Assembly: GCA_040753615.1 (NCBI GenBank)
Contig: JBFMDO010000077.1
Coordinates: forward strand, 418 to 64,417
DNA: 64,000 nt
Reading direction: 5' to 3'
DNA from: Nitrospirota bacterium
GTDB lineage: Bacteria > Nitrospirota > Thermodesulfovibrionia > Thermodesulfovibrionales > SM23-35
The position numbers were made by a program, and so were the translations under genes. This document shows, in pieces, positions 2,506-47,900 of the stretch; position 1 is the first letter of the stretch, and each line of letters begins with the position of its first letter. A model generated the notes under the pieces. It had not been told where the DNA came from. It did not search any database and saw nothing but the letters and a program-made list of their open reading frames with translations.

Positions 2506-2594
2506 CAGTTCCAAGTTCAACATTGCAAGTTAAATATAAACAACAAAAAAATTCAGATTGAAACTTTCAATCTTTGAACTTTAAACTTTTAACT
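2506..2594. repeat. Hairpin with inverted 7-nt-periodic arms between tRNA-His and tRNA-Arg
   Basis: Left cagttcc aagttca acattgc aagttaa; right tttcaat ctttgaa ctttaaa cttttaa. Confidence 0.65.
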
Positions 2595-2618
2595 CCAATT
2601 TTGCTAAGCAAAATTGGT

Positions 2619-2695
2619 TGGGGTGAGTGAGGGGACTCGAACCCCCAACACCTGGAGCCACAGTCCAGTGCTCTGACCATTGAGCTACACTCACC
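2619..2695 (-). tRNA. tRNA-His(GTG)
   Basis: G-1 plus GTGAGTG/CACTCAC acceptor stem, anticodon GTG, CCA end. Confidence 0.97.
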
Positions 2696-2912
2696 ATTAA
2701 CAACAGTGAATAGTTAATAGTAAAAGAAAAAACAGATAAAAATCAATTTTACCCATATCTGTCCAAGATAACAGAAAAGAGGTTTGATAAATAAATAATC
2801 ATGTCGATTCAGTGTGTTTATGAGGCATTTAGCCTCTTATATAAAATTATTTTAGACAGGTTTAAATTTTACTAAAAACTAACAACTGCAAATTTTGTTT
2901 GCAAAATTTGCA

Positions 2913-2989
2913 TGGCGCGCCTGAAGGGATTCGAACCCCTGACCCACTGCTTAGAAGGCAGTTGCTCTGTCCAACTGAGCTACAGGCGC
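2913..2989 (-). tRNA. tRNA-Arg(TCT)
   Basis: GCGCCTG acceptor stem, anticodon arm ACTGC-CTTCTAA-GCAGT, CCA end. Confidence 0.97.
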
Positions 2990-3080
2990 AATTAAAATTA
3001 AGAATTTTAAGGACAAAATAGTTTAAAATAAAATTATAAAATCTTATAAAAATTTAAGTCAAGGAACACAAAGGGTTTAA

Positions 3081-4475
3081 ATGGAACCTATAATCACTAA
3101 ACTTCGTAAAATAGAACGCAAAATATTTGAAAATATAAGATTTAAACTTTCCGTTTTCATATTTGTACTGCTTATTATAACTACCTTAGTATTTTATATA
3201 CTCACGGTACGAATGATGGATCAATACATCCTGAATGAACTTATCAAGAGGGCTGAATCTTTAAGCAGAAGTGTGGCAGCATCTGCAGTTCACGGTATTC
3301 TTTTAGGAGATGTTTTAGGCATTGATAATATTATTGCCAAACTGGAAGATTTAAATAAGGATGTTGAATATGTCGCTGTTGTTGATAGTGATATGAATGT
3401 AATTGCTCATACAGATCCTAACAAGAGTGGAGAAAAAATAGAGCCTGTAAAAGGAAGAACTCTTAAAAAAAGAAGGGATGGATTAGTTATAAATGAAGTA
3501 TCATCTGGTTCAGGTGATTATTTTGAGATATCTGCTCCTATTAGTTTTAAGGATAAAAAATTTGGAACAATCCTTCTCGGTGTTAATAAATCAGTGTTGC
3601 TTGATGTTAATCGCCGTGCTCGCGCCAGGATATTGGTAGGTTTTTCTGTTGCCCTTGTTCTGGGGGCTGTTGGAATTATCATACTATCCTATTTTCTAAC
3701 GAGGCCACTTCAAGAACTTTCTGTTGGTGTAAATGATCTCAAAGAAGGAAAAAGAAGCAGGCCATTAAGGGTTTACTCTAAAGATGAACTTGGAAAACTA
3801 ACAGAAAGTTTTAATGAAATGGCTGAACTTATAACACAGCAGAAACAAAGCCTTAATGAATATGCGAGGGAATTGGAAGATGCATATATTTCCACAGTAA
3901 AAGTCCTTGCCGCGGCTATAGATGCCAGAGATCCTTATACACTCGGCCACTCGGCAAGGGTTGCCAGGCTATCCTTAATGCTCGGAAAAGCAATAGGACT
4001 TAACGGGAAAGAGCTTGAAGACCTTGAAATAGCATGCCTTTTTCACGATGTTGGAAAACTTAATACCCCTGACTTTATACTCCAAAAGGTAGGAAAACTT
4101 ACTTCAACAGAATACAGAGAAATAATGAGCCATCCCGAGACCGGAGCAGATATTCTCAGCAAAGCACCTTCACTTCATAAATATATACCTTCAATCAGAC
4201 ATCACCATGAATGGTATAATGGTAATGGTTATCCCAAAGGGCTTAAAGGAGAGGAGATTCCCCTGTTTTCAGCTATAATATCCATAGCAGATGCCTTTGA
4301 TGCAATGACTTCAAAAAGACCTTACAGAAATCCTCTGTCAAAAACAGACGCGATCAAAGAGGTAGGCAATTTTTCAGGGAAACAGTTTAATCCCTATCTT
4401 GTGGAAACTTTCATGCAGGTAATGAGCAGGCAGGAATGGCCTGTAGAAGAACTATACAAGCCGGGGATAATATGA
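3081..4475 (+). CDS. Membrane HAMP + HD-GYP protein (c-di-GMP phosphodiesterase-like)
   Basis: Two TM helices around a periplasmic domain, HAMP (RPLQELSVGV...DELGKLTESFNEM), YTLGHSARVA, FHDVGK, HHHEWYNGNGYPKGL. Confidence 0.9.
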   Translation: MEPIITKLRKIERKIFENIRFKLSVFIFVLLIITTLVFYILTVRMMDQYILNELIKRAESLSRSVAASAVHGILLGDVLGIDNIIAKLEDLNKDVEYVAVVDSDMNVIAHTDPNKSGEKIEPVKGRTLKKRRDGLVINEVSSGSGDYFEISAPISFKDKKFGTILLGVNKSVLLDVNRRARARILVGFSVALVLGAVGIIILSYFLTRPLQELSVGVNDLKEGKRSRPLRVYSKDELGKLTESFNEMAELITQQKQSLNEYARELEDAYISTVKVLAAAIDARDPYTLGHSARVARLSLMLGKAIGLNGKELEDLEIACLFHDVGKLNTPDFILQKVGKLTSTEYREIMSHPETGADILSKAPSLHKYIPSIRHHHEWYNGNGYPKGLKGEEIPLFSAIISIADAFDAMTSKRPYRNPLSKTDAIKEVGNFSGKQFNPYLVETFMQVMSRQEWPVEELYKPGII

Positions 4476-5020
4476 GCAACCTCTCTAAAAGATTTATTAT
4501 TTTATTTACTATATTTTTGATTCTCGCTTCATGTGTCAAGACTATACAGCCTCTTAAGCTGGAAGCTGCGATCCAGACAGCCCATAAATATCTTGTTGAG
4601 GGCGATTTTCAGAAAGCTATAGAGATTTATAATAGTGCATCTGCTAAAAATCTGAATAACAAAGAACTATATAATAGTTATCTTAAAGCAATTGAATATA
4701 TAAAAGAAAATGCTGACAGGGCATTTAACAGTGAAATTTTTGCCTCAGCCGGCTATACTTATTATATTTTATTGATTAACTATCCACACTTTACAAATTT
4801 TGTCCACCTACTACCATTTGACCAATATTTTTTAGATAACAGGATTAAGACCTGTTCAAAGAATCTTGCTGCAAAGGGACTTATAGCATATAGAGAAGGA
4901 AAATTTGAAGAAGCGATTTATATATGGAAAGACATCCTGAGATTTGACCCTGAAAACGAAGAGATAAAAAAGTCAATTGATACAGCTACCACACAGCTAA
5001 AAAATTTCCAGAAGAAATAG
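4472..5020 (+). CDS. TPR-like lipoprotein
   Basis: ATG at 4472 overlaps the upstream stop; lipobox ILASC; TPR-like helices (AYREGKFEEAIYIWKDILRFDPEN). Confidence 0.75.
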   Translation: MSNLSKRFIILFTIFLILASCVKTIQPLKLEAAIQTAHKYLVEGDFQKAIEIYNSASAKNLNNKELYNSYLKAIEYIKENADRAFNSEIFASAGYTYYILLINYPHFTNFVHLLPFDQYFLDNRIKTCSKNLAAKGLIAYREGKFEEAIYIWKDILRFDPENEEIKKSIDTATTQLKNFQKK

Positions 5021-5025
5021 ATTAG

Positions 5026-6408
5026 TTATAGTTCAAAGGCATCACCTTTTTCAGGCACATGCGTTTTAAAACCTAACTTTTCATTTATATGTTCCCCAAA
5101 TGATATTGCTACGTCTTCTTCGCCATGCACTATAAAAACCTTGGGCGAATCCTTAAAAGCTGTTAACCATTCTAAAAGCCCTTTTTGATCAGCATGAGCT
5201 GAAAACCCATTGATTGTGTAAATAGAAGCTCTGACTGCTATCTCCTCTCCGAGTATATGAACAGACCTTGCCTTATCAACAATCTTTCTCCCCAGTGTGC
5301 CTTTGCCCTGAAATCCAACAAATGCAACACTGCATTCAGTCCTCCATAAGTTGTGCTTCAGGTGATGCCTTATCCTTCCACCTTCACACATGCCGCTCCC
5401 TGCAATTACAAGTATGCCTGATTTTATTTTGTTTAATTCCATTGACTCTTTGGCGCTATGAACAAAATGCAATTTGAGAGAGTGATTAATATTTCTGGTG
5501 GAAAAAAGTCTTCTTGCATCGTCATCAAAACATTCAGGGTGTGCAAGATATACCCGTGTTGCCTCTTCTGCAAGCGGACTGTCAAGATAGACATTAATCC
5601 TGTAAAGCCTGCCTTCCCTCACAAGGTTATTCAGGATATAAAGCAGATCCTGAGTTCTGCCTACTGCAAACGATGGAATAAATACATTGCCTCCCTGCTT
5701 GAATGTTGTTTTTATAACATCTACCAGTTCATCTATACTCTCTTTTAATGGTTTATGCAACCTGTTTCCATATGTTGATTCCATAACTATAAAATCTGCC
5801 TTCACAGGGATATACGGATCTCTTACTATTGGATTGCCTTTTTTACCTATGTCTCCAGAAAAAACAATTTTCTTTTCTTCACTATTATCCTGATAATATA
5901 ATTCGAGGGAGCTTGAACCGAGTATATGTCCTGCGTCCAAAAACCTGTATTTAATGCCGTTCCCAAGATGAAATATCTTTTCATAAGGTTTTACATCAAA
6001 AAGAGGGAGAACCTCTTTGACATCATCTGCTGTGTAAAGCGGGGCTACAGGGGATTTACCAGCCCTGATAGCCTTTCTCGTAAACCACTCTGCATCGCTT
6101 TCCTGTATATGTGCAGAGTCATAGAGCATTAATTCGAGAAGATCCCTTGTAGCATGTGTGGTGATAATCCTGCCACAAAACCCTTCCCTAACGATTCTCG
6201 GAATCAGACCTGAGTGATCAATGTGAGCATGCGTGATAAAAATATAATTGATCTCTTCAGGATCGAAATCAAATGCAGCCCTGTTTATTTCACTAGCCCC
6301 CTCGCCCTGATACATGCCGCATTCAACGAGGATTTTGAAATTGTTGCACTCAATATAAAAACATGAGCCTGTAACAGTCCTTGCTCCTCCGAGAAATTTA
6401 AGTATCAA
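5026..6408 (-). CDS. MBL-fold beta-CASP ribonuclease (YSH1-like)
   Basis: LGGARTVTGS, THAHIDHSG, AGHILGS, MESTYG, FSAHADQ, VHGE motifs. Confidence 0.92.
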   Translation of the reverse strand: MILKFLGGARTVTGSCFYIECNNFKILVECGMYQGEGASEINRAAFDFDPEEINYIFITHAHIDHSGLIPRIVREGFCGRIITTHATRDLLELMLYDSAHIQESDAEWFTRKAIRAGKSPVAPLYTADDVKEVLPLFDVKPYEKIFHLGNGIKYRFLDAGHILGSSSLELYYQDNSEEKKIVFSGDIGKKGNPIVRDPYIPVKADFIVMESTYGNRLHKPLKESIDELVDVIKTTFKQGGNVFIPSFAVGRTQDLLYILNNLVREGRLYRINVYLDSPLAEEATRVYLAHPECFDDDARRLFSTRNINHSLKLHFVHSAKESMELNKIKSGILVIAGSGMCEGGRIRHHLKHNLWRTECSVAFVGFQGKGTLGRKIVDKARSVHILGEEIAVRASIYTINGFSAHADQKGLLEWLTAFKDSPKVFIVHGEEDVAISFGEHINEKLGFKTHVPEKGDAFEL

Positions 6409-7330
6409 GTCGGTCCTCTACTATTTGGTATTTTTTGTATCTTATATACTCAAATAAGCCCCAAAGACTCCCTGCTGTTATAGAAATAAACCATGCTAAG
6501 GAAATTGCAGTTGCAACATCAGGATCAACTCCTACCAGACCGAAAAATATTATAAAGGCACCTTCTCTTACACCAATGCCGGAAACAGATATAGGCAATG
6601 TAGAAAAAAGGATTATGAGTGGCAGAAAGAGCATAAATGTAAAAAGGGGAATGTGTTGCCCAATGCCAATCGCGAGGATATATACAGCAGCTATACCAGA
6701 AACCTGAACTATCACGGATAATGCGAGGGTATTTATGAGAATCTTTTTCTGGTTGCGGTATGTATGAAAATAACCGTAAAAATCTGAGAGTATTTTTATT
6801 CTTCTGCCAAGGCGTAAACCGAATATCAAAAGGCTTACACCGATGAAACATACCACAACAAGAGGCAAAAGCCATACTGCATCTGTCCCTTGAAGATATT
6901 TGTATCCAAAGGGGAAGGCAATAATACTTATTACCATTAACACCACAAAGCCGAGATATCTGTCCATAAAAATCGAGGCAAGGGTTAAACCACCTTTACC
7001 TGTTGCCTGATATAAATAAATGCCTTTAACAGCATCCCCTCCAATTATCCCGGGGAGAAAGATATTAAAGAAAGAGCCTATCATATACAGTGAAAAAAGC
7101 CTTTTGATAGAAACTCTTTCTCCCTTAAGAAGCAGCTTCCATCTTATTGTGGATATAAACTGTGCAAATAAATAGAGAAATACAGCAGAGATAAACGCTA
7201 AAAGATTTAGACCTTTTAGTATGGATAAAATCCTTTCAGTTCCTGTTCTGGATAAAACAATATAAAGCAACGCAAAGCTTACGGTAAGTTTGAGTATAAA
7301 GAGGAATATTCTATTTGCTTTCAGGGCCAA
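6398..7330 (-). CDS. Lysylphosphatidylglycerol-synthase TM domain / flippase-like membrane protein
   Basis: Polytopic; FNIFLPGIIGGDAVK, FMDR, LPISVSGIGVREG. Confidence 0.85.
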   Translation of the reverse strand: MALKANRIFLFILKLTVSFALLYIVLSRTGTERILSILKGLNLLAFISAVFLYLFAQFISTIRWKLLLKGERVSIKRLFSLYMIGSFFNIFLPGIIGGDAVKGIYLYQATGKGGLTLASIFMDRYLGFVVLMVISIIAFPFGYKYLQGTDAVWLLPLVVVCFIGVSLLIFGLRLGRRIKILSDFYGYFHTYRNQKKILINTLALSVIVQVSGIAAVYILAIGIGQHIPLFTFMLFLPLIILFSTLPISVSGIGVREGAFIIFFGLVGVDPDVATAISLAWFISITAGSLWGLFEYIRYKKYQIVEDRLDT

Positions 7331-8258: not shown

Positions 8259-8316
8259 TAATAATTCCCCATTTTCACTTAAGTTCATAACATCATAACA
8301 TACAAATATCAGGCAA

Positions 8317-10650: not shown

Positions 10651-11829
10651 TTGAAGATGAAAACTGTAATGATAGTTGCTGGTGAAAGCTCGGGTGAATT
10701 ATACGGCTCACTCCTTGCAAAGGCATTAAAAGCCAGATTGCCAGATGTACATATGCTGGGGGTTGGCGGCGAGAAGATGAAAGATGCAGGGGTAGATCTG
10801 ATCGCAAGCACATCAGATGCATTCGGACTTATAGAAGCTGTTTCTGCATACCGTCAGGTTAAGACAGCATTCAAAAAGGCTGTTGAAGCAATTGAAAAAT
10901 TTAAACCAGAAGTTCTTATTCTTATTGATTATCCAGATTTTAATATAAGACTGGCGCGAGTAGCCAGGGCAGCCGGTATAAAGATATTGTATTATGTAAG
11001 CCCGCAGGTATGGGCATGGAGAAAGGGCAGGATAAAACAGATAGCAGAGATTGTTGATAGAATAGCAGTTATACTCCCTTTTGAAGAAAATATATACAGG
11101 GAAGCAGGGGTAAAATGTGAATTTGTAGGACATCCAATACTTGAAGAGATTAAGTCTGTTTTACAAACAGCAAGTAGCAGACAACACCCTGAACTCCGAG
11201 CTCACTTTAAAACCATTCTCGGCTTTGACCCGCGCATGCCTCTGCTATCTCTTTTACCCGGAAGCAGGCCGAGCGAACTGAAACGATTGCTTCCTTTAAT
11301 GTTAGATGTTGTCAGGCAATTTAAGACTGAAGTTAAGGAGTCTGCTGATAAATATCAGATTTGCATCCCTTTAGCTCCAAACACAGAAGAATCAAAATAT
11401 GCTGATTATCTCAACAAGTTAAGGCACGAAGGAGTAGAGATCAAGAAAGGTGAATCCGTCAGGGTGCTCGCTGCATCCGATATAGCTGTAGTCGCTTCTG
11501 GGACGGCAACACTTCAGACTGCGTTGATTGAGGTTCCAATGGTTGTAGTATATAAACTTTCTCCACTCACATATGTACTGGGAAAACTTATTGTGAATGT
11601 AAAATACATCTCGCTTGTTAATATACTTGCTGGCAGAGAGGTTGTGAAAGAGCTCATTCAGAAGAGAGCTAATCCAGAAGAGATAATAAAAGAGATTAAA
11701 AGGATTATTTTTGATATGAAATATAAAGAAGAAATACTTAATAATTATAGATTAATTAAAAAACCCTTCTTGGACAAGAGAACATCAGAAAGGGTTGCCG
11801 AGATGGTAATAGAGATGGCATCAAGATAA
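10651..11829 (+). CDS. lpxB: Lipid-A-disaccharide synthase
   Basis: AGESSGELYG, LIDYPDFN, YYVSPQVWAWR, FVGHP, LLPGSR, VASGTATL. Confidence 0.96.
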   Translation: MKMKTVMIVAGESSGELYGSLLAKALKARLPDVHMLGVGGEKMKDAGVDLIASTSDAFGLIEAVSAYRQVKTAFKKAVEAIEKFKPEVLILIDYPDFNIRLARVARAAGIKILYYVSPQVWAWRKGRIKQIAEIVDRIAVILPFEENIYREAGVKCEFVGHPILEEIKSVLQTASSRQHPELRAHFKTILGFDPRMPLLSLLPGSRPSELKRLLPLMLDVVRQFKTEVKESADKYQICIPLAPNTEESKYADYLNKLRHEGVEIKKGESVRVLAASDIAVVASGTATLQTALIEVPMVVVYKLSPLTYVLGKLIVNVKYISLVNILAGREVVKELIQKRANPEEIIKEIKRIIFDMKYKEEILNNYRLIKKPFLDKRTSERVAEMVIEMASR

Positions 11830-17142: not shown

Positions 17143-17149
17143 AAAGATA

Positions 17150-17242
17150 AAGTAAAATTTAAAAAGCAAAATGTAAAATTACAATTCAAAACTTAAAAAT
17201 AAATCTCCAGAGTTTTTAATTTTTACCTTTTAATTTTAATAT
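17150..17242. repeat. Hairpin with inverted 7-nt-periodic arms
   Basis: Left aagtaaa atttaaa aagcaaa atgtaaa attacaa ttcaaaa cttaaaa; right tttaatt tttacct tttaatt ttaatat; the right arm encodes the NUDIX C-terminus. Confidence 0.75.
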
Positions 17243-17659: not shown

Positions 17660-18726
17660 GGAAAAGTTTTTCCTGTAATCAATCTTATGATGTCATTATA
17701 TAGTGCAAATGCCATAATAGTGAGTATGAGGGCAAGTCCTATCCTCTGGCTGACTGCGATGAATTTTTCATTTAATGGTTTTCTTCTTATTGCCTCGATC
17801 CCGAGAAACAATATATGGCCGCCGTCGAGAATCGGGATGGGAAGCAGATTGAGTACGCCAATGTTAATACTTATAATAGCCATAAACAAGAAAAAATTCA
17901 TAAGACCCCTCGATGCCTGTTCTCCTGCCATCTGTACAATAAGTATGGGACCTCCTATAGTGTCTGCTGGTATAACCCTCTGGATAAGTTTAATAACAGA
18001 TACGACTGTTAATACTGTTATATCCCATGTTCTGATAATGCTACCTTTTAATGCAGCGATAAAACCTTCCTTTTTTATGAAGGTATTCTCAGAAGGCTTT
18101 ATTCCAATAAGCCCAATCTCTTTTTCATCCCCGAAAATATTTTTTATCTTCATCTTCTCAGGCGTTATTATCTTTGTGAAAATATTACCATCTCTTTCTA
18201 TCCTGAAATTGAGCGACTTACCAGGATTGTTATGAATAATTTCTGCCATCTCGTCCCATTGATTTATAGTAGTATCGTCAATCCCTGTAACCTTGTCTCC
18301 CTTTGCAAGACCTGAGAGTGAAGCAGGTGAATTATCCATAACCTCACCCACATCCGGAAGCAATACAGGGACCCCGGCTAAGAAGATAAAGAAAAAGATA
18401 GTAATAGCGAAAACCATGTTAAATAATGGCCCAAAAAATACTATTAAAAATCTCTTCCATACAGGCTGATATTTATATGCCAACCGTTTTTCTTCTTCTT
18501 TTAATTCCTCTCCGGGTTCTTCGCCGAGCATCTTTACATAACCACCGAGAGGTACTGATGAAAGAAGGTATTCGGTATCGCCATATTTTTTCCCAATAAG
18601 TTTTGGCCCAAATCCGAGCGAAAATTTTTTAACCTTAACCCGTGTCAGCTTTGCTAATAAAAAATGACCTAACTCGTGTACGAATATTATTATTCCGAGA
18701 AGGATTATTGCTGATAAAAATGTCAT
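17656..18726 (-). CDS. rseP: RIP metalloprotease RseP
   Basis: HELGH, PDZ domain, NLLPIPILDGG. Confidence 0.96.
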   Translation of the reverse strand: MTFLSAIILLGIIIFVHELGHFLLAKLTRVKVKKFSLGFGPKLIGKKYGDTEYLLSSVPLGGYVKMLGEEPGEELKEEEKRLAYKYQPVWKRFLIVFFGPLFNMVFAITIFFFIFLAGVPVLLPDVGEVMDNSPASLSGLAKGDKVTGIDDTTINQWDEMAEIIHNNPGKSLNFRIERDGNIFTKIITPEKMKIKNIFGDEKEIGLIGIKPSENTFIKKEGFIAALKGSIIRTWDITVLTVVSVIKLIQRVIPADTIGGPILIVQMAGEQASRGLMNFFLFMAIISINIGVLNLLPIPILDGGHILFLGIEAIRRKPLNEKFIAVSQRIGLALILTIMAFALYNDIIRLITGKTFP

Positions 18727-19889
18727 TTTCTAACTCTCCCTATGATTTTTTCTGCCTTTTCTCTTGCCCATCTGTCAGCTTCTATAATAACATCAAGGTC
18801 TGAGTCAGGCATAATAGTGTGTTGGTCCATGATTTTTTTAATTATAACAGGTATTTGAGTAAATCTGATTGTACCTTTAAGAAATGCATCCACTGCAACC
18901 TCATTTGCTGCATTGAGCACAGATGGCATTGTGCCTCCGGTCTCAATGGCTGTATATGCATAAGAGAGACACGGAAAGCTTCTCTTATCAGGCTGTTTGA
19001 ATGTGAGAGCGCCGATTCTATCAAGCTCAAGCCCCTTTATTACATTATTAAGTCTTTCAGGATAAGTAAGTGTGTATGCTATAGGACCCTTCATATCAGG
19101 TAAAGAAAGCTGTGCTATGCACATTCTGTCATTAAACTCTACTAAGGAATGCACAATGCTTTCAGGATGGATGAGAACGTCTATCTTTTGAGGTGGAAGA
19201 CCGAATAAATGATGAGCCTCTATTACCTCGAGCCCCTTATTCATAAGAGTTGCAGAGTCTATTGTTATTTTTTTTCCCATCTTCCATTTCGGATGCTTTA
19301 GTGCTTCCCTCGGTGTAATATTATGCAGTTCACAAATATTCCTGCCGGCAAAAGGCCCGCCTGATGCAGTCAATATAATCCTTCTCACATCTGATTTTCT
19401 GTGCCCCTCTATACACTGGAATATTGCACTATGCTCACTGTCCACAGGAAGAATTTTTACGTTATGCGTTTTTGCTTCTTCAATCATTATCCTTCCTGCC
19501 ATCACGAGTGTCTCTTTGTTTGCAAGACCGATTGTTTTTTTAGCTTGTATGGCTGATAGTGTTGGGACAAGACCTGCGGCACCAACTATTGCAGAGAGAA
19601 CAAAATCAGACGCTGTATAAGCCGCTGCATCCCTAATACCGTCCTGCCCTGATAATATATGAAGAGAAGAATATTTTTTCTCTATTCTTTTTCTTAATTT
19701 CTTTGCAGCATCTTCATTTGCGAGAGCTACAATCTCAGGAGAAAAAGACTTTATCTGTTTTTGGATGAGGTCTATGTTGCTTCCTGCTGTCAGCGCAACA
19801 ACCTTAAAACGATCCCTGTGTTTTGAGATGATATCAAGGGCATTTCTTCCTATTGAACCTGTTGATCCAAGAATCGTTATGCGTTTCAT
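18723..19889 (-). CDS. dxr: 1-deoxy-D-xylulose-5-phosphate reductoisomerase
   Basis: LGSTGSIG, LANKETLV, PVDSEHSAI, KITIDSATLMNKGLE. Confidence 0.97.
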   Translation of the reverse strand: MKRITILGSTGSIGRNALDIISKHRDRFKVVALTAGSNIDLIQKQIKSFSPEIVALANEDAAKKLRKRIEKKYSSLHILSGQDGIRDAAAYTASDFVLSAIVGAAGLVPTLSAIQAKKTIGLANKETLVMAGRIMIEEAKTHNVKILPVDSEHSAIFQCIEGHRKSDVRRIILTASGGPFAGRNICELHNITPREALKHPKWKMGKKITIDSATLMNKGLEVIEAHHLFGLPPQKIDVLIHPESIVHSLVEFNDRMCIAQLSLPDMKGPIAYTLTYPERLNNVIKGLELDRIGALTFKQPDKRSFPCLSYAYTAIETGGTMPSVLNAANEVAVDAFLKGTIRFTQIPVIIKKIMDQHTIMPDSDLDVIIEADRWAREKAEKIIGRVRK

Positions 19890-19959
19890 TTAACCTCTCA
19901 TAATGTCATACAGATGTTGTGAAAATTAGCCCTTTTTATTCATGAATTTTCTCAAATAT

Positions 19960-20090
19960 AGACAGGACATAGTATTTAAGCGGGTTTTTTTGCCGATAGT
20001 CAAATAGACTATATGAAAATAAAGAGGTAAAAGCCTCGCAGTCCCGACTAAAGTCGGGACGAGAATGAGCGAAAATACTATGTCCTGTCT
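19960..20090. mobile_element. 131-bp MITE-like or structured element bounded by a perfect 18-bp inverted repeat, containing hairpin-repeat copy B (20029-20079)
   Basis: AGACAGGACATAGTATTT (19960-19977) and AAATACTATGTCCTGTCT (20073-20090); internal hairpins gtcccgact-aa-agtcgggac and atagtc-aaata-gactat. Confidence 0.55.
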
Positions 20091-20126
20091 GGTAACCATA
20101 GTTTATGAATAATCTGGGCTAAAATC

Positions 20127-21630: not shown

Positions 21631-23376
21631 TTATCCTCCGCTCTCCTTAATTGGCTGTACATAAAGCACTGATCTTATTAGACTTTTACCTTTCAGGATA
21701 TTCCCGAAATTAGAACCAAATTTAGGTTTTACAAGGATCATTATTTTATCTCCGGAAATCAGATAATCGCGGAAAGAACCGTCTATCTCGTCTATAAGAA
21801 TATTTTCTTCCATTGAAAGCCCGTTCCATCGCAGGGTTCTAATCTGATAACTTTTATAACCAAGCCCCTTTACCATCTCAAGAAAGGGGATCCTTTTAAC
21901 AAAAAAAATGTCTTTGTCTATAAGAAAAAATCTATCTTTAATCGCCCATTCACCACGTTCTACCATTATTGAAGGTGCAGATTTTGTAAATGTTGCTGGG
22001 GAACCTCCTGTAGCGGCGTTACTTTTCCAAAGCCTTGTATTTTTATCGTCATATAAATTTAAGAACCCCTTTTCATCATAAGCAAGCATTAATTTTTCTG
22101 ATGGGGAGGCATCAATATATATAAAATCATATATATTAACATTCGCAGGAAGTTTTATCTCCTTTCCGTTCTTGTATTCTCCTTCGAAAATAAACTCGAA
22201 GACAGCACCTTTAAAACCTTCAGAATGTGAATATGCCTGAGCTATAAGTTTGTCTTCTATTTTTCTCAGGAAGATATCTCCTTTATAAAGGAGAATAAAT
22301 TCGGTACCGCTGAGTTCATAAATGTAAGAGATAACTTCTTCATGTTTCATCGAAGTTATAATTATCTCATTTCTTCCATTGCTGTTGAGATCAATTGAAT
22401 CAAGCCATAGGTGATTATCCATATTGGTCCCATCTATTTTAATCCCTCCCAGCGCAGGCTGCGGATCTGCACTTGATGTATATATTCTGATATCTTTTCC
22501 TGTGCTGAAAATAAGCTCTTCTTTTCCGTCTCCGTCAATATCACCTGTTGTTATAAGCCTTGCATTGAATGGAAGACCAACGTTTAAACGCGTATCCTCT
22601 TTGTCTAAAGAAAAGAATTCTTCACCAAATTTTAAATTCTTTTTAAAGGCGGTCTCAATATTTGAGCTCATTTCGTGAAACTTGCAACCATCAGATACCC
22701 AGAAAAGACGTTGAGTAATAACTGCTTCTGAACCAACAGAGCCATCTGTTAGAAAAAGCGCTACTTCTGCGCCGAGTCTCTTTGCCTCAATAATAATTTT
22801 TGCAGGGTCGTCTGTTTCAATTCCTGTATCAATCAGGTTAAATCTATCGTTTTTCTTGAGGTTTCTATAATATGAGTCTGCTAAATTCCAGTCTGTATCT
22901 TTTGATACGCAAAAAAGCATATTTACCTTTGCCTCTGATATCCTGACTTTATCGCCCTCTTTTGCATAACCTTCGATTATTTCACCCGAAGATGATTCCA
23001 TCCCTGTCTCTTTTATCTCGAGCAAGCCAACGAATGACTCCATATTCCCTATAACCTCTTTTGTAACAGGATGTTTAAAGGGCGCAACTTCTCTTACTAT
23101 ATTTAACCGCATCCCCGGTCTTACAGAATCTGTTGTGCCGAGGTCTATTACAGCTTCTCTATCTTTTACCATTATTATTTTGCCTGTCAGAGGTTTGAAG
23201 AACGAGACTGTCTCATCCCTTAATCTATCGAGCGGGTTATCGCCAGCATAAACAGTACGCAGCGCACTGTGAGCAGTGAATAATACAAATATTACAAATA
23301 TAAGCCACAATATAAGTTTTAATCTTGGACTTCTGACTTCTGACTTCTGTTTTCTGTCTTCTGTTCCTCGCCTCAT
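21631..23376 (-). CDS. Exported FG-GAP/VCBS-repeat protein with a heptamer-repeat-derived N-terminus
   Basis: GDIDGDGKEEL, DLNSNGRNEI; TM segment after MRRGTEDRKQKSEVRSPR. Confidence 0.75.
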   Translation of the reverse strand: MRRGTEDRKQKSEVRSPRLKLILWLIFVIFVLFTAHSALRTVYAGDNPLDRLRDETVSFFKPLTGKIIMVKDREAVIDLGTTDSVRPGMRLNIVREVAPFKHPVTKEVIGNMESFVGLLEIKETGMESSSGEIIEGYAKEGDKVRISEAKVNMLFCVSKDTDWNLADSYYRNLKKNDRFNLIDTGIETDDPAKIIIEAKRLGAEVALFLTDGSVGSEAVITQRLFWVSDGCKFHEMSSNIETAFKKNLKFGEEFFSLDKEDTRLNVGLPFNARLITTGDIDGDGKEELIFSTGKDIRIYTSSADPQPALGGIKIDGTNMDNHLWLDSIDLNSNGRNEIIITSMKHEEVISYIYELSGTEFILLYKGDIFLRKIEDKLIAQAYSHSEGFKGAVFEFIFEGEYKNGKEIKLPANVNIYDFIYIDASPSEKLMLAYDEKGFLNLYDDKNTRLWKSNAATGGSPATFTKSAPSIMVERGEWAIKDRFFLIDKDIFFVKRIPFLEMVKGLGYKSYQIRTLRWNGLSMEENILIDEIDGSFRDYLISGDKIMILVKPKFGSNFGNILKGKSLIRSVLYVQPIKESGG

Positions 23377-40087: not shown

Positions 40088-40120
40088 AAACAGTCACTTC
40101 TCAATGCCCTCTCGTTGAAA

Positions 40121-40266: not shown

Positions 40267-40289
40267 GTCTGTTTATTTGAGCAAAGAAA

Positions 40290-40832: not shown

Positions 40833-40835
40833 AAG

Positions 40836-41756: not shown

Positions 41757-43069
41757 AGATATTAATCAAGAACGGACATGTTATAGACCCGTCTCAGGGG
41801 ATTGATGGGATTGGGGATATCTTGATCGAAGGCGGGAAGATAAAAGAAATAAGAATACAGAACACAGCTACCCCCCCTAATCCCTCCCTTACTAAAGGGG
41901 GGTATTGTGGGGTAAATTCAGAATCCAGAACTATAGATGCAACCGGTTTGTACGTCTTTCCCGGTCTTATTGACATGCATGTTCATCTAAGGGAACCCGG
42001 TTATGAATATAAGGAGACCATAAAAACAGGCACTATGGCTGCTGTTAAAGGTGGTTTTACAACTGTATGTTGCATGCCAAACACATCTCCTGTTAATGAC
42101 CATGCAAGTGTAACAGAATTCATAATAAGAAAGGCGATACAGGAAGGCGCCTGCACAGTTCTGCCTATTGGCGCTATAACAAAGGAACAAAAAGGCGAAG
42201 AACTCGCAGAGATAGGCACTATGGTAAAAGAAGGTTGTATTGCTTTTTCTGATGACGGAAGACCTGTGATGAACAGCCTTATTATGAGGAGGGCACTTGA
42301 GTATTCAAAGGCATTTAATGTGCCGATAATTGCTCATTGCGAGGATATAACCCTTTCTGAAGAAGGAGTAATTAATGAAGGTTTGATATCTACAACACTC
42401 GGACTCAGAGGTATCCCGGCTGAGGCAGAGACAATAATGGTCTTCAGGGATATTTTATTGGCAGAACTTACAGGTGGCAGACTGCACATTGCTCATGTCT
42501 CAACAGAAGGCTCTGTAAGATTAATCCGGGATGCAAAAAAACGGGGTGTTAATGTAACAGCAGAGACATGTCCTCACTATTTTACTCTTACAGAAGATGC
42601 TGTTAAAGATTACAATACGAATGCAAAAGTGAATCCGCCTCTAAGAACTGACCGTGATATCAATGCCATAAAAGAGGGATTAAAAGATGGTGCTATTGAT
42701 GTGATTGCAACAGACCACGCCCCCCATCATATGGATGAAAAACTAAGAGAGTTTGACAGGTCACCCTCTGGCATATCAGGACTCGAAACAGCATTGGGGT
42801 TGAGTCTAAGGCTCGTCCACGAAGGTATCCTTTCGTTGAATCAACTTATCGAGAAGATGGCACTTAACCCAGCTATGATTTTGAATATCAGGAAAGGCAC
42901 ACTTAAAATAGGCTCTGATGCGGATATTACAGTAGTGGATATTAATAAAGAATGGACAGTAAATACTGACAAGTTCGTATCAAAAGGTAGAAATACGCCA
43001 TTTGAAGGATGGTTTTTGAAAGGGATGTCAGCTTTGACAATATGTAGGGATAAATTATATGAGTGGTAA
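41753..43069 (+). CDS. pyrC: Dihydroorotase with an in-frame insert
   Basis: [34 protein letters not shown]. Confidence 0.96.
41870..41915. repeat. C-tract/G-tract palindrome in frame within pyrC
   Basis: a ccccccc taat ccctccc ttactaaa gggggg tattgt gggg, encoding [13 protein letters not shown]. Confidence 0.85.
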
Positions 43070-44195
43070 GGCATTATTAGTCCTTTCCGATGGAATTGTC
43101 TTTGAAGGAAATAGTTTTGGCGATGAAGGTGAGACTATTGGTGAGGTGGTATTCAATACCTCTATGACAGGTTATCAGGAGATACTCACTGACCCTTCAT
43201 ATAAAGGACAGATTGTTACTATGACTTATACACAGATAGGCAATTATGGGATTAATGAAGAAGATATAGAATCTCACAACGGCCCAAAGGTAGAGGGTTT
43301 TGTTGTTAAAGAATATATTGATTTCCCAAGCAACTGGAGATATTCCATGTCTCTCGGTCAGTATCTCAAAGATCACAAAGTAGTCTCTATAGAAGGTATT
43401 GATACAAGGGCATTAACAAGACATCTAAGAAATCATGGCGCTCAGATGGGGATAATCTCAACCATAGACCTGAATCCCGAAAGTCTTTTAGAAAAAGTAA
43501 GATCACATCCTGCTATCTCGGCATTTGATCTGGTAAAAGAGGTAACAACAAAAAATATCTATTCATGGAAAGAGGGTTGTTGGAAGTGGGACGAAACTCT
43601 ACCTCCCCCCCTTACCAAGGGGGGGCAGGGGGGGGGTAAAGTCGTTGTTTACGATTTCGGAGTAAAGTTTAATATCCTGAGAAATCTATATGACGCTGCT
43701 TTTGACATAACTGTTGTGCCAGCGCAAACACCTGCTGAAAAGGTTCTGGAGATGAACCCTGACGGTATTGTCCTTAGTAATGGCCCTGGAGACCCTCAAA
43801 CAGTTAGTTATGCAATTGAAAATACAAAAAAGCTCATGGGGAAAAAACCAGTACTTGGAATCTGTCTTGGCCATCAGATACTCGGTCTTGCAATGGGCGG
43901 AAGGACATATAAACTCAAATTTGGACATCACGGAGGCAACCACCCTGTAAAGGACTTAGCCACAGGCAGGGTTGAGATTACATCACAGAATCATAATTAC
44001 TGTGTTGATATTAAAAGTCTTCATGGACAGGTCAGACTTACACACAAAAATCTATACGATGGCACTGAAGAAGGCATGCAGCATGTTGAACTGCCTATCT
44101 TTTCAGTCCAGCATCATCCAGAAGCAGGGCCGGGACCGAATGATTCAGCACATCTATTCAAAAGATTCAGGGAGATGATACAGAGGGGATGTTAG
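43059..44195 (+). CDS. carA: Carbamoyl-phosphate synthase small subunit
   Basis: FNTSMTGYQE, SNGPGDP, GICLGHQ, GHHGGNHP, HHPEAGPGP. Confidence 0.97.
   Translation: MSGKALLVLSDGIVFEGNSFGDEGETIGEVVFNTSMTGYQEILTDPSYKGQIVTMTYTQIGNYGINEEDIESHNGPKVEGFVVKEYIDFPSNWRYSMSLGQYLKDHKVVSIEGIDTRALTRHLRNHGAQMGIISTIDLNPESLLEKVRSHPAISAFDLVKEVTTKNIYSWKEGCWKWDETLPPPLTKGGQGGGKVVVYDFGVKFNILRNLYDAAFDITVVPAQTPAEKVLEMNPDGIVLSNGPGDPQTVSYAIENTKKLMGKKPVLGICLGHQILGLAMGGRTYKLKFGHHGGNHPVKDLATGRVEITSQNHNYCVDIKSLHGQVRLTHKNLYDGTEEGMQHVELPIFSVQHHPEAGPGPNDSAHLFKRFREMIQRGC
43601..43637. repeat. C-tract/G-tract palindrome in frame within carA
   Basis: acct ccccccc ttaccaa ggggggg ca ggggggggg t, encoding PPPLTKGGQGGG. Confidence 0.85.
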
Positions 44196-44198
44196 TAA

Positions 44199-44690
44199 AT
44201 GGAATTGGATTTTCGAAAAATATTTACGGAGCTTAATAAATTAAAGATCGACTATCTTGTTGTGGGAGGGTTGGCAGTTAATTTTTATGGTGTTCCGAGA
44301 TTGACTTATGATATTGACCTGATGATATTGCTACAAGCAGAAAATATCAAAAAATTAGTTTCAAAACTTACTAATTGGGGTTACCGCCCAAAAGTTCCGG
44401 TTAATCCAGTGGAACTTGCTGATGAAGCAAAAAGAAATTCGTGGATAAAAGAAAAAGGGATGAAGGCAATGAATTTTTACAATGAGAAATCACCTATCGG
44501 AGAGATTGACATTGTTTTTGATTCACCGATTCCTTATAGTGAATTGAAAAGTAGAGCTGTTATAATTGAGATTGAAGGAGGAAAAATCCCTACTGTCTCA
44601 ATCCATGACCTTATTAAGCTTAAACAGAAATCAGGTCGTAAGCAGGACATTGCAGATGTTGAATATCTGAAGATAATTCTGGAGAGATAA
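44199..44690 (+). CDS. Nucleotidyltransferase-fold protein (DUF6036-like)
   Basis: VVGGLAVNFYGVPRLTYDID, LIKLKQKSGRKQDIADV. Confidence 0.8.
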   Translation: MELDFRKIFTELNKLKIDYLVVGGLAVNFYGVPRLTYDIDLMILLQAENIKKLVSKLTNWGYRPKVPVNPVELADEAKRNSWIKEKGMKAMNFYNEKSPIGEIDIVFDSPIPYSELKSRAVIIEIEGGKIPTVSIHDLIKLKQKSGRKQDIADVEYLKIILER

Positions 44691-44917
44691 TGAAAGAACG
44701 GAGAAAGGGATTCACCCAGTTAGAGAAAGCCACTGACAGAGGTCAAAGTTCTCTAAAGGGTTTCACCTATACTGTAAGTCAAGAACAGTTGGATGATTAT
44801 CGCAAATGGTCAATGGAACGCAGGTTGAAATGGCTTTATTATGCAAATAAAATGAGAAAAGGTCTTCCAAAGAAAACTATCGAGATTCAGGAGATGTTTC
44901 GTGAGGGAAAGATATAG
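44690..44917 (+). CDS. Small basic protein coupled to the nucleotidyltransferase (TA-partner-like)
   Basis: 75 aa, TAATG overlap; ERRLKWLY. Confidence 0.65.
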   Translation: MKERRKGFTQLEKATDRGQSSLKGFTYTVSQEQLDDYRKWSMERRLKWLYYANKMRKGLPKKTIEIQEMFREGKI

Positions 44918-44976
44918 GATAAATAATGGTAATAGAGTGTCAGAGTTTCTAAAAACAATGACATTTTGAGGAATCT

Positions 44977-47900
44977 ATGCCAAAAAGAACTGACATCAAA
45001 AAAATATTATTAATAGGCTCAGGTCCTATAATCATAGGACAGGCGTGTGAGTTTGACTATTCAGGGACACAGGCATGTAAGGCTCTTCGAGAAGAGGGTT
45101 ATAAGGTAATTCTCGTCAATTCTAATCCTGCAACTATTATGACAGACCCTGAGATAGCTGATGTAACCTACATAGAGCCCTTAACTGCTGAGGTCATTGA
45201 GATGATTATTGATAAAGAGCGTCCTGACGCCCTTCTTCCGACAATGGGTGGGCAAACTGCCTTAAATTTAGCAGTTGAACTCTCTAACAAAGGCATCCTC
45301 TCTAAATATAGAGTTGAACTCATCGGTGCAAAGATCGATGCAATTAAAAAGGCAGAGGACAGAGAACTTTTTAAGGATGCCATGAAAAAGATAGGACAGG
45401 AAGTTCCAAAATCTGCTTATGTGGGATTATTAAAGGAAGGACTTGAGGTGATAGAAGACATTGGATTTCCTGCAATCCTCAGGCCTTCATTCACCCTCGG
45501 AGGCACTGGCAGCGGCATAGCTTATAACATAGAAGAATATAAATATCTGCTCGAAAAAGGCTTAAAACTCAGCCCTGTAAGCCAGGTTCTTGTTGAGGAG
45601 TCAGTCCTCGGCTGGAAGGAATACGAGCTTGAGGTCATGAGGGATGTAAAAGACAACGTTGTTATTATTTGCTCAATAGAAAACTTTGACCCAATGGGAA
45701 TACATACAGGAGATTCGATTACTATTGCTCCTGCCCAGACACTCACTGATAAAGAATATCAAAGGATGCGTGATGCAGCTATCGCAATTATACGAGAGAT
45801 AGGTGTTGATACAGGAGGCTCAAATATCCAGTTTGCCCTTAATCAGAGAAACGGCAGGATGGTAGTCATAGAAATGAATCCGAGGGTATCGAGGAGTTCA
45901 GCGCTTGCATCAAAGGCAACGGGCTTTCCAATAGCAAAAATTGCAGCAAAACTTGCGGTTGGTCTTGCACTCGATGAGATACCAAATGATATTACCAAGG
46001 AAACACCCGCGTCATTTGAACCTACAATAGATTATGTTGTAACAAAGTTTCCGAGATTCGCATTCGAAAAATTTCCTGAAGCAGACCCAACACTTACCAC
46101 ACAGATGAAATCTGTTGGAGAAGTGATGTCAATCGGAAGAACTTTCAAGGAGTCTTTGCAGAAGGCTATAAGGAGTATCGAGATTGATAGCTATGGGTTT
46201 GAAGAGAGCAATGCTGATATAAATAAAATAAAGGCAAAACTTAAAACACCCGGCGCTGAGCGAATCTGGTATATAGCACAGGCTATCAGAGAAGGCATGA
46301 GTATTCAGGAGATATATGAACTTACATGGATAGACCCATGGTTTCTGCAAAATATCAAGCAGATAATAGATATGGAAGCTATATTAAAAAGTCAGAAGTT
46401 AAAACTCAAAACTCAAGATCTAAAAATCTCTGATGCCCTAACTGCTAACTCCGAACTTGTGAAATTGCTGATGGAAGCAAAGGGCTTTGGTTTTTCAGAT
46501 AGAAGAATAGCAGATCTGTTAAATGTAGAAGAGTCTGATATCAGACATTTAAGAAAACAATATAATCTGCATGCTGTATACAAAATGGTTGATACCTGTG
46601 CTGCAGAATTTGCTGCATATACACCATATTTTTATTCAACGTATGAAAAACCATTTTATAAGATTAATCCCCCCACCCCCCCTTTACTAAAGGGGGGCGA
46701 GGGGGGATTTGTTGAGTGTGAGGCTAATCCAAGTAACAGAAGAAAGATTCTTATCCTCGGCGCAGGCCCTAACAGGATAGGACAGGGCATAGAGTTTGAT
46801 TATTGCTGTGTTCATGCAGTATTTGCTCTCAGAGAACTGGGATATGAGACTATAATGGTAAATTGTAATCCTGAGACCGTCAGTACAGACTATGATACTG
46901 CTGATAGACTTTATTTTGAACCTCTTACAATAGAGGATGTGCTGAATATTATAAAAACAGAAAAACCCGAAGGGGTTATAGTCCAGTTTGGGGGGCAGAC
47001 ACCGCTAAAACTTGCCGTACCGCTTGAAAAAGAAGGCGTGAAGATTCTTGGCACATCACCTGATTCTATAGATCGTGCAGAAGACAGAAAAAGGTTTAAA
47101 GAACTCCTCCATAAACTCAATCTCAAACAGGCTGAGAGTGATACAGCAATGTCTATAGAAGAAGCCCTTACTGCTGCTTCAAGGATAGGTTATCCTGTGA
47201 TGGTAAGGCCATCTTATGTGCTCGGTGGCAGGGCAATGGAGATAGTATATGATGAAAAAGCCTTGATGGAATATATAGAGCGGGCAGTCAAGGCATCTCC
47301 TGAACATCCTGTCCTTATTGATAAATACCTCGAGGATGCCATAGAACTTGATGTTGATGCAATTTCTGATGGAAAAGATGTAATTATAGGAGGCGTGATG
47401 GAGCATATCGAGGAAGCAGGTATTCATTCAGGGGATTCAGCATGTTCTCTACCACCACATTCCTTGCCTGCGGAAACTATCGAGGAAATAAAAAAACAGA
47501 CAAAGGTTCTCGCAAAAGAGCTTAATGTAATAGGATTAATGAATGTCCAGTTTGCTGTGAAGGGCAGCGACATTTATATACTTGAAGTAAATCCAAGGGC
47601 ATCAAGGACAATTCCATTTGTGGGGAAAGCAACAGGCGTGCCGCTTGCAAAACTTGCTGCTAAAGCAATGATCGGCAAGACATTAAACGAACTCGGCATC
47701 ACAGAAGAAAAACTTATACGGCATATCGCAGTTAAAGAGGCTGTTTTCCCATTCGACAGGTTTTCCGGAGTTGATACAATACTTGGTCCTGAGATGAAAT
47801 CCACAGGTGAGGTAATGGGGATAGATAGTAATTTTGGCATTGCATTCGGGAAATCCCAAATAGCGTGTGGCAACAGAATACCTCTGTCAGGAAAGATATT

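Follow-up and report, generated by a model that had tools for sequence, protein, structure and literature searches.

Heptanucleotide arrays and inverted-repeat hairpins in a tRNA operon, at a gene junction and within genes of an uncultured Thermodesulfovibrionales bacterium

The window analysed here is a stretch of 64,000 nt from the Nitrospirota assembly GCA_040753615.1 (contig JBFMDO010000077.1, positions 418 to 64,417; G000:C77:418-64417 in our numbering, in which G000 is the assembly holding the window, other G numbers are genomes of relatives and L numbers are loci of these relatives). It carries hairpins whose two arms consist of tandem 7-nt units in inverted orientation, located in both spacers around a tRNA-His gene and at a gene junction, as well as heptamer arrays within protein genes. 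The assembly comprises 2.29 Mb in 78 contigs, has a G+C content of 38.5% and is rated 100% complete. The organism is an uncultured member of the Thermodesulfovibrionales and not a cyanobacterium, despite the resemblance of its repeat units to those of the cyanobacterial short tandemly repeated repetitive (STRR) sequences. No gene for a photosystem reaction centre (Photo_RC) was found in G000, and its nearest GroEL relatives, none above 83% identity, all come from metagenome-assembled genomes labelled Nitrospirota or Thermodesulfovibrionales.

Four tRNA genes form an operon on the minus strand (2297..3062). ARAGORN and Rfam both identified tRNA-Arg(tct) (2989-2913), tRNA-His (2694-2619), tRNA-Arg(ccg) (2496-2422) and tRNA-Lys (2410-2335), and Rfam returned tRNAs only over the entire window. 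A promoter-like site (3062-3033, minus strand, 11/12 match in the promoter scan) lies upstream and a terminator-like hairpin (2325-2297, minus strand, terminator scan) follows tRNA-Lys, which places the hairpins of two spacers, sites 1 and 2, within one predicted precursor.

The 122-nt spacer between tRNA-His and tRNA-Arg(ccg) folds on the tRNA strand into a short perfect hairpin followed by a hairpin of about 98 nt (site 1, 2497..2594, minus strand). The minimum free energy (MFE) of this spacer is −31.7 kcal/mol with a z of −4.7, and it was equalled by none of 200 shuffles (all fold z values given for window sites compare the MFE to shuffles, 200 in the case of sites 1 and 2). The 5′ arm reads AGTTAAA AGTTTAA AGTTCAA AGATTGA and the 3′ arm TTTAACT TGCAATG TTGAACT TGGAACT, following the pattern AGTTnAA / TTnAACT, and the deviant unit AGATTGA of one arm is mirrored by the deviant TGCAATG of the other. 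The lag-7 scores are 16/21, which is in the top 0.1% of genomic windows, and 12/21. Tandem Repeats Finder (TRF) reported 4.7 copies with period 7 (array 2561-2594).

Site 2 occupies the 218-nt spacer from tRNA-Arg(tct) to tRNA-His and is built from nnnTAGT / ACTAnnn units. Its 5′ arm (CAGTTGT TAGTTTT TAGTAAA; 2867..2888, minus strand, lag-7 13/21) and its 3′ arm (TTTTACT ATTAACT ATTCACT G; 2704..2725, minus strand, lag-7 14/21) pair in the predicted fold. The whole spacer has a z of −4.9, and again none of 200 shuffles was as good. Stems of about 25-40 pairs are predicted for sites 1-3, and the loops of the window hairpins, of about 20-30 nt, hold no open reading frame (ORF) of the PF05635 family.

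A short perfect trailer hairpin, (T/A)(G/C)CAAATTTTGC..GCAAAATTTG, starts 0-1 nt after tRNA-Arg(tct) and tRNA-His (2887-2912 and 2595-2617, minus strand). Both spacers open with this hairpin and continue with AGTT units; they are paralogous. The trailer hairpin is confined to these two among the 43 tRNAs of G000, and its sequence is kept at both places in most relatives. The terminator scan called the trailer hairpin at 2912-2887 and the hairpin at the operon end (2325-2297) and none of the long heptamer stems, and a terminator role of these stems was therefore rejected.

The interior of site 2 is larger than that of site 1. About 120 nt of it match many other places in G000, and BLAST and alignment identify this part (2745..2864, minus strand) as a truncated miniature inverted-repeat transposable element (MITE) together with one copy of its target duplication GTAAAATT, lying in the hairpin loop. 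The MITE family is about 240 nt long, with at least 13 near-full copies in G000 (87-96% identity), terminal inverted repeats AACCTGTCCAAGATAA / TTATTTTGGACAGTTATG, an internal inverted repeat AAGAGGCTGGGTGC/GCACCCAGCCTCTT and target duplications of 9-11 bp. Copies include C70:101204-101296, C26:20958-21050 and C43:57958-58050, plus at least ten more. The window copy is internally deleted and has the direct repeat GTAAAATT on either side. Without the insert, site 2 is a 98-nt spacer with a loop of about 20 nt that folds like site 1. Since the interior is a truncated MITE flanked by GTAAAATT, with its own inverted ends, it is not cargo of the hairpin, and its interpretation as a cargo relic was rejected.

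The AT-rich hairpin of site 3 (17146..17240, minus strand) is located at the junction of a NUDIX gene and a cytidylyltransferase gene, both assigned by Pfam, and the NUDIX gene takes its final codons, stop codon included, from the upstream arm. One arm is (AAAATTA)n-like and the other (TTTTAAn)n-like. Both were called as period 7 by TRF (17152-17179 and 17213-17237), and each reaches 15/21 at lag 7, a value in the top 0.2% of genomic windows. The fold z was only −1.8 because the sequence is strongly A/T-rich.

Site 4 (23328..23363, minus strand) is a lone array, (GACTTCT)x5, with a TRF score of 51, 5.1 copies, 89% matches and a lag-7 score of 19/21. On the sense strand it reads AGAAGAC AGAAAAC AGAAGTC AGAAGTC AGAAGTC. 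No complementary left arm was found, and the fold z was +1.2. This stretch is probably translated, as ..DRKQKSEVRSP.., and would then form the charged N-region in the signal peptide of an exported, FG-GAP-like protein.

At site 5 (46387..46458, plus strand) we observed an eroded in-frame array pair in the linker of the CarB oligomerisation domain (AAGTCAG AAGTTAA AACTCAA AACTCAA ... CTAACTG CTAACTC CGAACTT). The lag-7 signal is clear on the left (17/21) and weak on the right (11/18), the arms are complementary at about 10/13 positions, and the fold is not significant (z −0.75). In this CarB protein the Pfam domain CPSase_L_D3 aligns 94 residues to 78 profile positions. A further in-frame array, not listed in the earlier note on this DNA, lies in a dihydroorotase-like gene (41838..41932, plus strand, lag-7 15/21), upstream of the Pfam Amidohydro_1/DHOase domain that starts at residue 67. 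It consists of AAGATAA AAGAAAT AAGAATA CAGAACA (41838-41868) and TCAGAAT CCAGAAC (41906-41932), split by a G/C-run palindrome (41869-41905). Site 6 in lpxB (11166..11206, plus strand) is unsupported as a member: the fold z was −0.1, TRF made no call, the lag-7 score of 12/21 is in the top 2% only, and the LpxB profile was matched without a sizeable insertion.

We then compared these sites to the whole genome. TRF detected 129 period-7 arrays with at least three copies in G000, besides 35 arrays of period 6, 19 of period 8 and 34 of period 9. Five dinucleotide shuffles in 300-nt blocks yielded 8-12 period-7 arrays and 5-10 period-8 arrays, which corresponds to an enrichment of about 13-fold for period 7 and about 2-fold for period 8. 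When 127 non-overlapping arrays were searched for a partner at most 450 nt away, 30 had an inverted partner, as compared to 1/127 for random flank pairs at equal score, and 11 had a direct partner. AGT or ACT is contained in 44% of the consensus units and GTCA or AGTC in about 30%, versus 13-17% for random genomic heptamers. TTGGTCA-like and CAACAGT-like units occur in G000 and are not dominant, and families of period 8 (GGGTTCAA) and period 9 (GTTTAAACC) are also present. Of the arrays, 58/129 (~45%) lie deep within open frames of at least 100 aa, so their location is not predominantly intergenic.

These data demonstrate that arrays and hairpins genuinely exist and greatly exceed chance expectation, and they allow the proposals of the earlier note to be judged. 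It had named an abundance or pairing no greater than in dinucleotide-shuffled DNA as the outcome that would speak against it; with 129 arrays versus 8-12 and 30 inverted partners versus 1, the opposite was found. Of the six heptamer hairpins it had flagged, sites 1, 2 and 3 are real hairpins with 7-nt-periodic arms, while site 4 turned out to be a lone array, site 5 is eroded and site 6 is unsupported. Its view that the 7-nt period and the inverted layout are common to the sites and the units site-specific was borne out. The stronger claim, that architecture and not sequence is conserved, is correct for period and layout but needs to be restricted with regard to the units, which are constrained to the AGT/ACT and GTCA/AGTC classes at the frequencies given above.

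Ten in-frame arrays were inspected, and each belongs to a recognisable enzyme or transporter in which Pfam domains flank the array on both sides or span it (HypF, a CobB-like amidase, MurD, an AcrB-type pump, RsmE, RecJ, chorismate synthase, an anthranilate/PabB-type synthase, a radical SAM protein and ManC). Translation of these arrays gives peptides with a periodicity of seven residues, such as SQKSEVR and VSSQQSVVSSQ. The copy in hypF lies at C28:28364-28484. Where GACTTCT arms lie on the sense strand their units are altered (GACTCTC, GACTTTC), and therefore no TGA occurs in frame. For annotation this calls for caution in two respects, since housekeeping proteins acquire variable loops, N-termini and C-termini through such arrays, and since the interior of a hairpin may be a later insertion and not cargo.

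Dispersed near-identical copies of the heptamer hairpins, an alignable common core or a target duplication were not found in G000. Conserved multi-copy sequence, terminal inverted repeats and target-site duplication, by which MITEs are recognised, are present only in the unrelated insert at 2745-2864. The genome has two Y1_Tnp genes; their flanks carry no matching heptamer hairpins and are unrelated to the arrays, and mobilisation as for repetitive extragenic palindromes (REP) by REP-associated tyrosine transposases (RAYT) was rejected. Two paralogous loci, C24:17099-17123 and C24:20600-20632, share about 95% identity over about 190 nt, and the period-8 array of one is longer than that of the other by exactly one 8-nt unit (GGGTTCGA); the number of units changes by single units.

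About 20 genomes from the same family and order keep the gene order of the tRNA operon. Most relatives carry the trailer hairpin and a long hairpin with period-7 arms in both spacers, and the modules are syntenic in about 18 genera. The units in these relatives are nnnTAGT/ACTAnnn after Arg(tct) and AGTTnAA/TTnAACT after His, with the number of units and the variable positions differing by genus. In relatives' spacers of at least 80 nt, lag 7 was the best lag in 11/11 cases for the site 1 spacer and in 13/15 cases for the other. Duplexes of cognate arms were calculated to be more stable than duplexes of arms from different genomes (−24.9 vs −14.5 and −19.7 vs −13.0 kcal/mol), and the cognate arm was among the top three in 8/11 and 11/16 cases, numbers that are descriptive because the genomes are kin and not independent. 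The right arms in L008 and L024 end with TAACTGA, and a T-run follows the site 1 stem in several genera. Thus, across genera the period and the arm complementarity persist at orthologous sites, while the unit number and the variable positions change.

Empty sites, for which the earlier note had suggested to look, do exist in relatives. The tRNA spacers are empty or nearly so in a few of them, with lengths of 2 nt (L024), 14 nt (L009), 25 nt and 28 nt, and in L014 and L025 only the short hairpin and part of one arm are left. In eight relatives the two genes of the site 3 junction overlap or almost touch. The CarB linker of site 5 is about 15 aa shorter in L039, L042 and L047. An exact-pattern scan of metagenome contigs and two exact-protein look-ups, in collections from which records close to G000 may be missing, retrieved no filled and empty alleles at the level of strains.

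Other relatives are filled at these positions. An AAAATTA/TTTTAAA hairpin like that of site 3 is present at the orthologous junction in another genus (L079, G009), and hairpins with other heptamers occur there as well (AATAACC in L078, AGTGACn/GTTACTC in L086 and L090), often starting within the last NUDIX codons. At the site 4 position, several genera of the same family carry TCAGAAn-type arrays right after a conserved Shine-Dalgarno sequence and an ATGAG(A/G)C start, and orthologues outside the family have short N-termini such as MKNIQRY. In the CarB linker, other period-7/8 arrays or hairpins were found in L030, L033, L035 and L036. A second CarB loop, which holds a G/C palindrome in G000, carries heptamer or octamer hairpins in L029, L031, L034, L036 and L043, and the units of L029 (AAAAGTT/AACTTTT) are those of site 1.

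The earlier note had linked inverted heptamer arms to genes for four-helix-bundle proteins, which similar arms were said to flank. This link holds. G000 has five genes above the cut-off for PF05635, and the best match (C9:18415-18732) lies exactly between the TRF arrays CGTAAGG (18374-18400) and CCTCACG (18754-18777). The arms of the others have period 6 (AAGGTT), period 9 (GGTTTACNC, GTTTAAACC) or a weaker period 7. The family was detected in 24/31 genomes of the lineage, and at 28/33 PF05635 loci of G000 and its relatives the inverted complementarity of the flanks exceeded the maximum of 30 shuffles, and at 18 loci it did so by far. Tandem units of 6-9 nt are plainly visible in the arms. Some belong to the unit class of the tRNA spacers: those of L110 and L119 (AATAGTG AACAGTA TTTAGTG; AGTATTT AGTGAAC AGTGAA) match the hairpins of the Arg(tct)-His spacer.

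Similar arms are present in 23S rRNA. The 23S rRNA gene of G000 is not assembled, and all observations on 23S rRNA refer to relatives. The 23S rRNA of G024 (L140) contains a gene-less hairpin of 67 nt with (AGGTTA)n arms at about position 1210 (G028 numbering), a site which, from the flanking sequence and the E. coli sequence, we take to be helix 45. Its arms (AGGTTAAGATTGAGGTTAAGGTTAAG) are almost identical to the left arm of a PF05635 cassette in G000 (C48:2381-2698). In G001 and G007 (L141, L142), gene-less hairpins of about 90-110 nt with 7-mer or 6-mer arms are found at about position 283. The same design of arms is thus seen both with and without a gene, and its locations include rRNA as well as positions between tRNAs, between protein genes and within them. 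The arrays occupy spots that tolerate extra RNA, namely spacers of the tRNA operon, gene junctions that formerly overlapped, surface linkers and N-termini of proteins (in frame) and, in relatives, helices of rRNA.

Parts of this array class are already known, as STRR sequences, the P6b hairpin of Nostoc, TAACTGA repeats, the repeats of Geobacter and Xanthomonas, and the intervening sequences (IVS) of 23S rRNA. The cyanobacterial STRR units, described by Mazel and colleagues in 1990, reportedly include CCCCAGT, TTGGTCA and CAACAGT. With these the window and the genome share head-to-tail 7-nt arrays of at least three copies and a core of the AGT/GTCA type. Rickettsia palindromic elements (RPE), attributed to Ogata and colleagues in 2000, are said to be small hairpin repeats lying in frame in housekeeping genes and read through as surface loops. 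Translated in-frame hairpin repeats are common to both cases, and the CarB linker (site 5) and the second CarB loop show what is expected of an RPE-like element, an in-frame hairpin repeat present in some orthologues and absent from others. RPE families have a conserved sequence, in contrast to the copies described here, which have only period and inverted layout in common and whose arms are tandem repeats.

In the group I intron of the Nostoc tRNA-Leu gene, degenerate heptanucleotide repeats pair into the P6b hairpin, and strains differ in the number of repeats and in extra inserted elements (PMC3488679), which parallels site 2 with its MITE. Unlike Nostoc P6b and STRR sequences, the repeats described here belong to a member of the Nitrospirota that lacks photosystem genes, the hairpins lie between tRNA genes and not in a group I intron, and many copies are translated. 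The TAACTGA direct repeats of Beggiatoaceae, Cyanobacteria and Bacteroidetes form arrays at gene starts and stops, with few inside ORFs (MacGregor 2015, PMC4679880). They share the unit class nnnCTGA / TCAGnnn with our arrays, but one exact unit is dominant and a single indirect repeat was found (PMC4679880), whereas the units here are diverse and a quarter of the arrays form inverted pairs.

Paired tandem hepta-, octa- and nonanucleotide repeats, also within genes, have been described for Geobacter metallireducens, where the class 3 unit is MTYCTGA (Aklujkar et al. 2009, PMC2700814), and convergent GGGAATC pairs for Xanthomonas, with 70-75 per genome (Rehm et al. 2015, PMC4692102). Both cases resemble ours: the short arrays form pairs, one per strand, whose spacing varies, and they are found mainly at the borders of genes and now and then within them. 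MTYCTGA equals CTTCTGA of site 4. In those studies the arrays are interpreted as regulator sites or as G-quadruplex formers, and their sections on these repeats draw no link to PF05635 or IVS; the units here are A/T-rich and site-specific.

The closest known structures are the IVS of 23S rRNA, which sit in helix 25 or 45 and have terminal stems of 20-30 bp or more. In Coxiella burnetii the IVS has a 28-bp stem with tandem GACAGAT (x3) and is excised by RNase III, which cuts at the first repeat, and strains differ in the number of repeats (Warrier et al. 2016, PMC4990558). The IVS (helix 45 in Coxiella; also in Leptospira and Salmonella) and the window hairpins have in common the long terminal inverted-repeat stem and the heptamers within it, and GACAGAT/GACAGAA of Coxiella is the same unit as AGAAGAC/AGAAAAC of site 4. 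IVS can carry, as optional cargo, a small four-helix-bundle gene (S23p/PF05635 ORF), and in this lineage the same arm units are found in the 23S hairpin of G024 and around a PF05635 gene of G000. Unlike IVS, the window copies are located outside rRNA, in spacers of tRNA genes, within coding sequence and at a junction of mRNA genes, and none has a gene. Excision by RNase III was shown for the Coxiella IVS (PMC4990558) and is proposed from the sequence for the window copies. An experimental precedent for such a mode of action is hmw1A of Haemophilus influenzae, in which a transcribed 5′ untranslated array (ATCTTTC)n forms one arm of a long hairpin that is cut by RNase III, and in which transcription, hairpin and RNase III are all required for a change in repeat number (Rapun-Araiz et al. 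2025, PMC12721329). It differs from the present case as a single locus controlling a phase-variable adhesin of a pathogen, with a non-repetitive G-rich right arm and no dispersed family (PMC12721329).

We regard the window sites as local representatives of a class of short-period (mostly 7-nt) arrays that extends across the lineage and of which about a quarter form inverted pairs as long hairpins, and as the gene-less form of an IVS-type cassette. We assign this reading a probability of roughly 0.6. A hairpin of this kind would be transcribed along with its host RNA. In the tRNA precursor, the near-perfect stem of 30-40 bp would be cut by RNase III, whose gene is present in G000 (C2:12012-12386), and such a cut would set the tRNAs apart from each other and excise the insert without harm, as happens with the intervening sequences of 23S rRNA. 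By analogy to these, cleavage of the stems by RNase III is plausible. Stems at gene junctions might simply be tolerated, as might those translated as loops, which ribosomes would unwind. The arms could lengthen and shorten by slipped-strand mispairing, and their complementarity could be kept by selection on the stem, by hairpin-templated repair, or by both.

Several observations weigh against this reading. About 75% of the arrays (97/127) have no detectable partner, and the hairpin is therefore not an obligatory form. In-frame hairpins lie within essential mRNAs, which argues against efficient cutting of many stems. Co-transcription and cleavage are both deduced from sequence features. We found no candidate enzyme for making new copies, no target duplication and no moving copy in G000. 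RNAalifold on a MAFFT alignment of eight orthologous spacers recovered the short trailer hairpin and not the long stem; this is because the repeat units slip in register, and covariation therefore rests on the cross-duplex comparison.

The relation to PF05635 genes also has its limits. Relatives have no PF05635 gene at the orthologues of the window sites (tRNA spacers, NUDIX junction), and in samples of 20-80 kb from each of 12 relatives the density of period-7 arrays does not follow the number of PF05635 hits. Per 100 kb, 23 arrays were counted in G009 with 0 PF05635 hits, 15 in G014 with 11 hits, 12.5 in G024 with 7 hits, 0 in G010 (40 kb sampled) with 5 hits and 0 in G001 with 2 hits. G009 has the highest sampled density (14 arrays in 60 kb) and no PF05635 match at E<=1e-8, and is rated 96% complete. 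We therefore rejected a dependence of the arrays on PF05635; a requirement for the protein is unlikely. For the same two reasons the proposal that the hairpins are cargo-less relics remains unproven.

Four other explanations were considered. The arrays could be plain long simple-sequence repeats that slip in place and are paired by an occasional local inverted duplication, with neither mobility nor a role in RNA, and whose likeness to IVS and PF05635 flanks stems from ubiquitous slippage-prone units. The unpaired majority (97/127), the one-unit difference between the paralogous loci on C24, which shows slippage, and the lack of a transposase, a target duplication or identical dispersed copies are in line with this idea, and an excess of heptanucleotide repeats is known from some bacterial genomes (PMC4692102). 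However, slippage alone does not explain why period 7 is enriched 13-fold and period 8 about 2-fold, why inverted partners are 30-fold above the null, why arms remain complementary across genera while the units change, or why the arm design is shared by 28/33 PF05635 loci and a helix-45-like site in 23S rRNA. We consider this explanation unlikely. Another explanation is a chance pattern in AT-rich low-complexity DNA: site 3 is AT-rich with a fold z of only −1.8 and sites 5 and 6 fold no better than shuffles, but the genome-wide shuffles with their 8-12 arrays as against 129, the folds of sites 1 and 2 that none of 200 shuffles matched, and the conservation at orthologous sites make chance highly improbable. 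It is already refuted for sites 1-4 and stands for site 6.

The remaining two explanations assign a function to the repeats, and we hold either to be improbable. The arrays could be bound by a protein, such as a global transcriptional or translational regulator, that recognises DNA or RNA in a 7-nt register, in which case inverted pairs would be paired operators and not RNA hairpins. The position of site 4 at a gene start and the AGT/GTCA core in 30-44% of the units are compatible with this, as is the annotation of paired repeats in G. metallireducens as putative sites of a global regulator, among them MTYCTGA x5, the unit of site 4 (PMC2700814). Units that differ this widely among sites and even among orthologous sites could hardly be read by one regulator, though; the arms co-vary within a site instead of keeping one motif, about 45% of the arrays lie deep in coding sequence and are translated, and no candidate protein was identified. 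Sites 1 and 2, finally, could be dedicated, vertically inherited structures for processing or attenuation of the pre-tRNA that are unrelated to the dispersed arrays and to IVS, their heptamer appearance being a by-product of an old spacer duplication. This would agree with the paralogy of the two spacers, both opening with the CAAATTTTGC...GCAAAATTTG hairpin and AGTT units, with the restriction of the trailer hairpin to two of 43 tRNAs, with the synteny of the modules over about 18 genera and with the T-run after the site 1 stem in several of them. It is at odds with relatives that do without the hairpins (spacers of 2, 14, 25 and 28 nt), with the unit classes themselves, which recur among the dispersed arrays, in PF05635 flanks and, as AAAAGTT/AACTTTT in L029, in relatives' CarB loops, and with long stems that are not called terminator-like.

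More speculatively, and with low confidence, the hairpins may be the gene-less majority form of a transposase-less element that is defined by RNA structure, whose arms are rewritten in steps of 7 bases coupled to transcription and cutting by RNase III, the copies of the tRNA operon having been domesticated as RNase III processing signals. If this were true, an architecture would be conserved while its sequence drifts, such an element could settle wherever an RNA can accommodate a stem (rRNA helices, tRNA spacers, gene junctions, protein loops), and the copies of the tRNA operon would have been kept throughout the history of a bacterial family.

Compared to the known repeats, the present data add two paralogous hairpin modules in a tRNA operon that are kept across a family, a MITE that accounts for the size of the site 2 interior, arm units that are identical between a 23S rRNA hairpin and the flanks of a PF05635 gene within one lineage, and an array density that is uncorrelated with the PF05635 copy number. 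Three old unexplained observations, heptamer repeats, intervening sequences of 23S rRNA and the large PF05635 family, meet with the same arm design in one lineage. The lineage also provides natural experiments: a tRNA operon with hairpins in both spacers in about 18 genera and empty in a few, and enzyme loops that are filled or empty among orthologues. Cutting of the stems by RNase III and the upkeep of arm complementarity during turnover become testable in a simple heterologous system.

Some further observations concern the neighbourhood of the arrays. In a second tRNA region of G000 (C19:36920-37269), period-7/8 arrays flank the tRNA genes on both sides, for example GGTCATT GGTCAGT GGTTATT after tRNA-Thr(ggt). 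Another repeat (TGTCATTGCGAGG.. / GTCATTCCCGAAA..) is found in the loops or surroundings of heptamer hairpins of relatives, in the 276-nt His to Arg(ccg) spacer of L018 (G015) and at the NUDIX junction in L079, L081 and L082. Together with the MITE in site 2 of the window, this points to hairpin loops as preferred places for the insertion of other small elements. A G/C-run palindrome, translated as a PPL..KGG peptide element, lies repeatedly within or right beside heptamer arrays, at 41869-41905 of the window, in the N-terminus of the site 4 orthologue L060 (G002), in the second carB loop of L035 (G001) and at C25:16723-16760 (recJ). Palindrome and arrays may both choose the same tolerant loops, or the palindrome may target the arrays. 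The window also holds a second dispersed repeat (19925-20120) of about 190-200 nt with inverted ends AGACAGGACATAGTATTT / AAATACTATGTCCTGTCT and more than 35 copies in G000 (72-94% identity), which is probably another MITE family.

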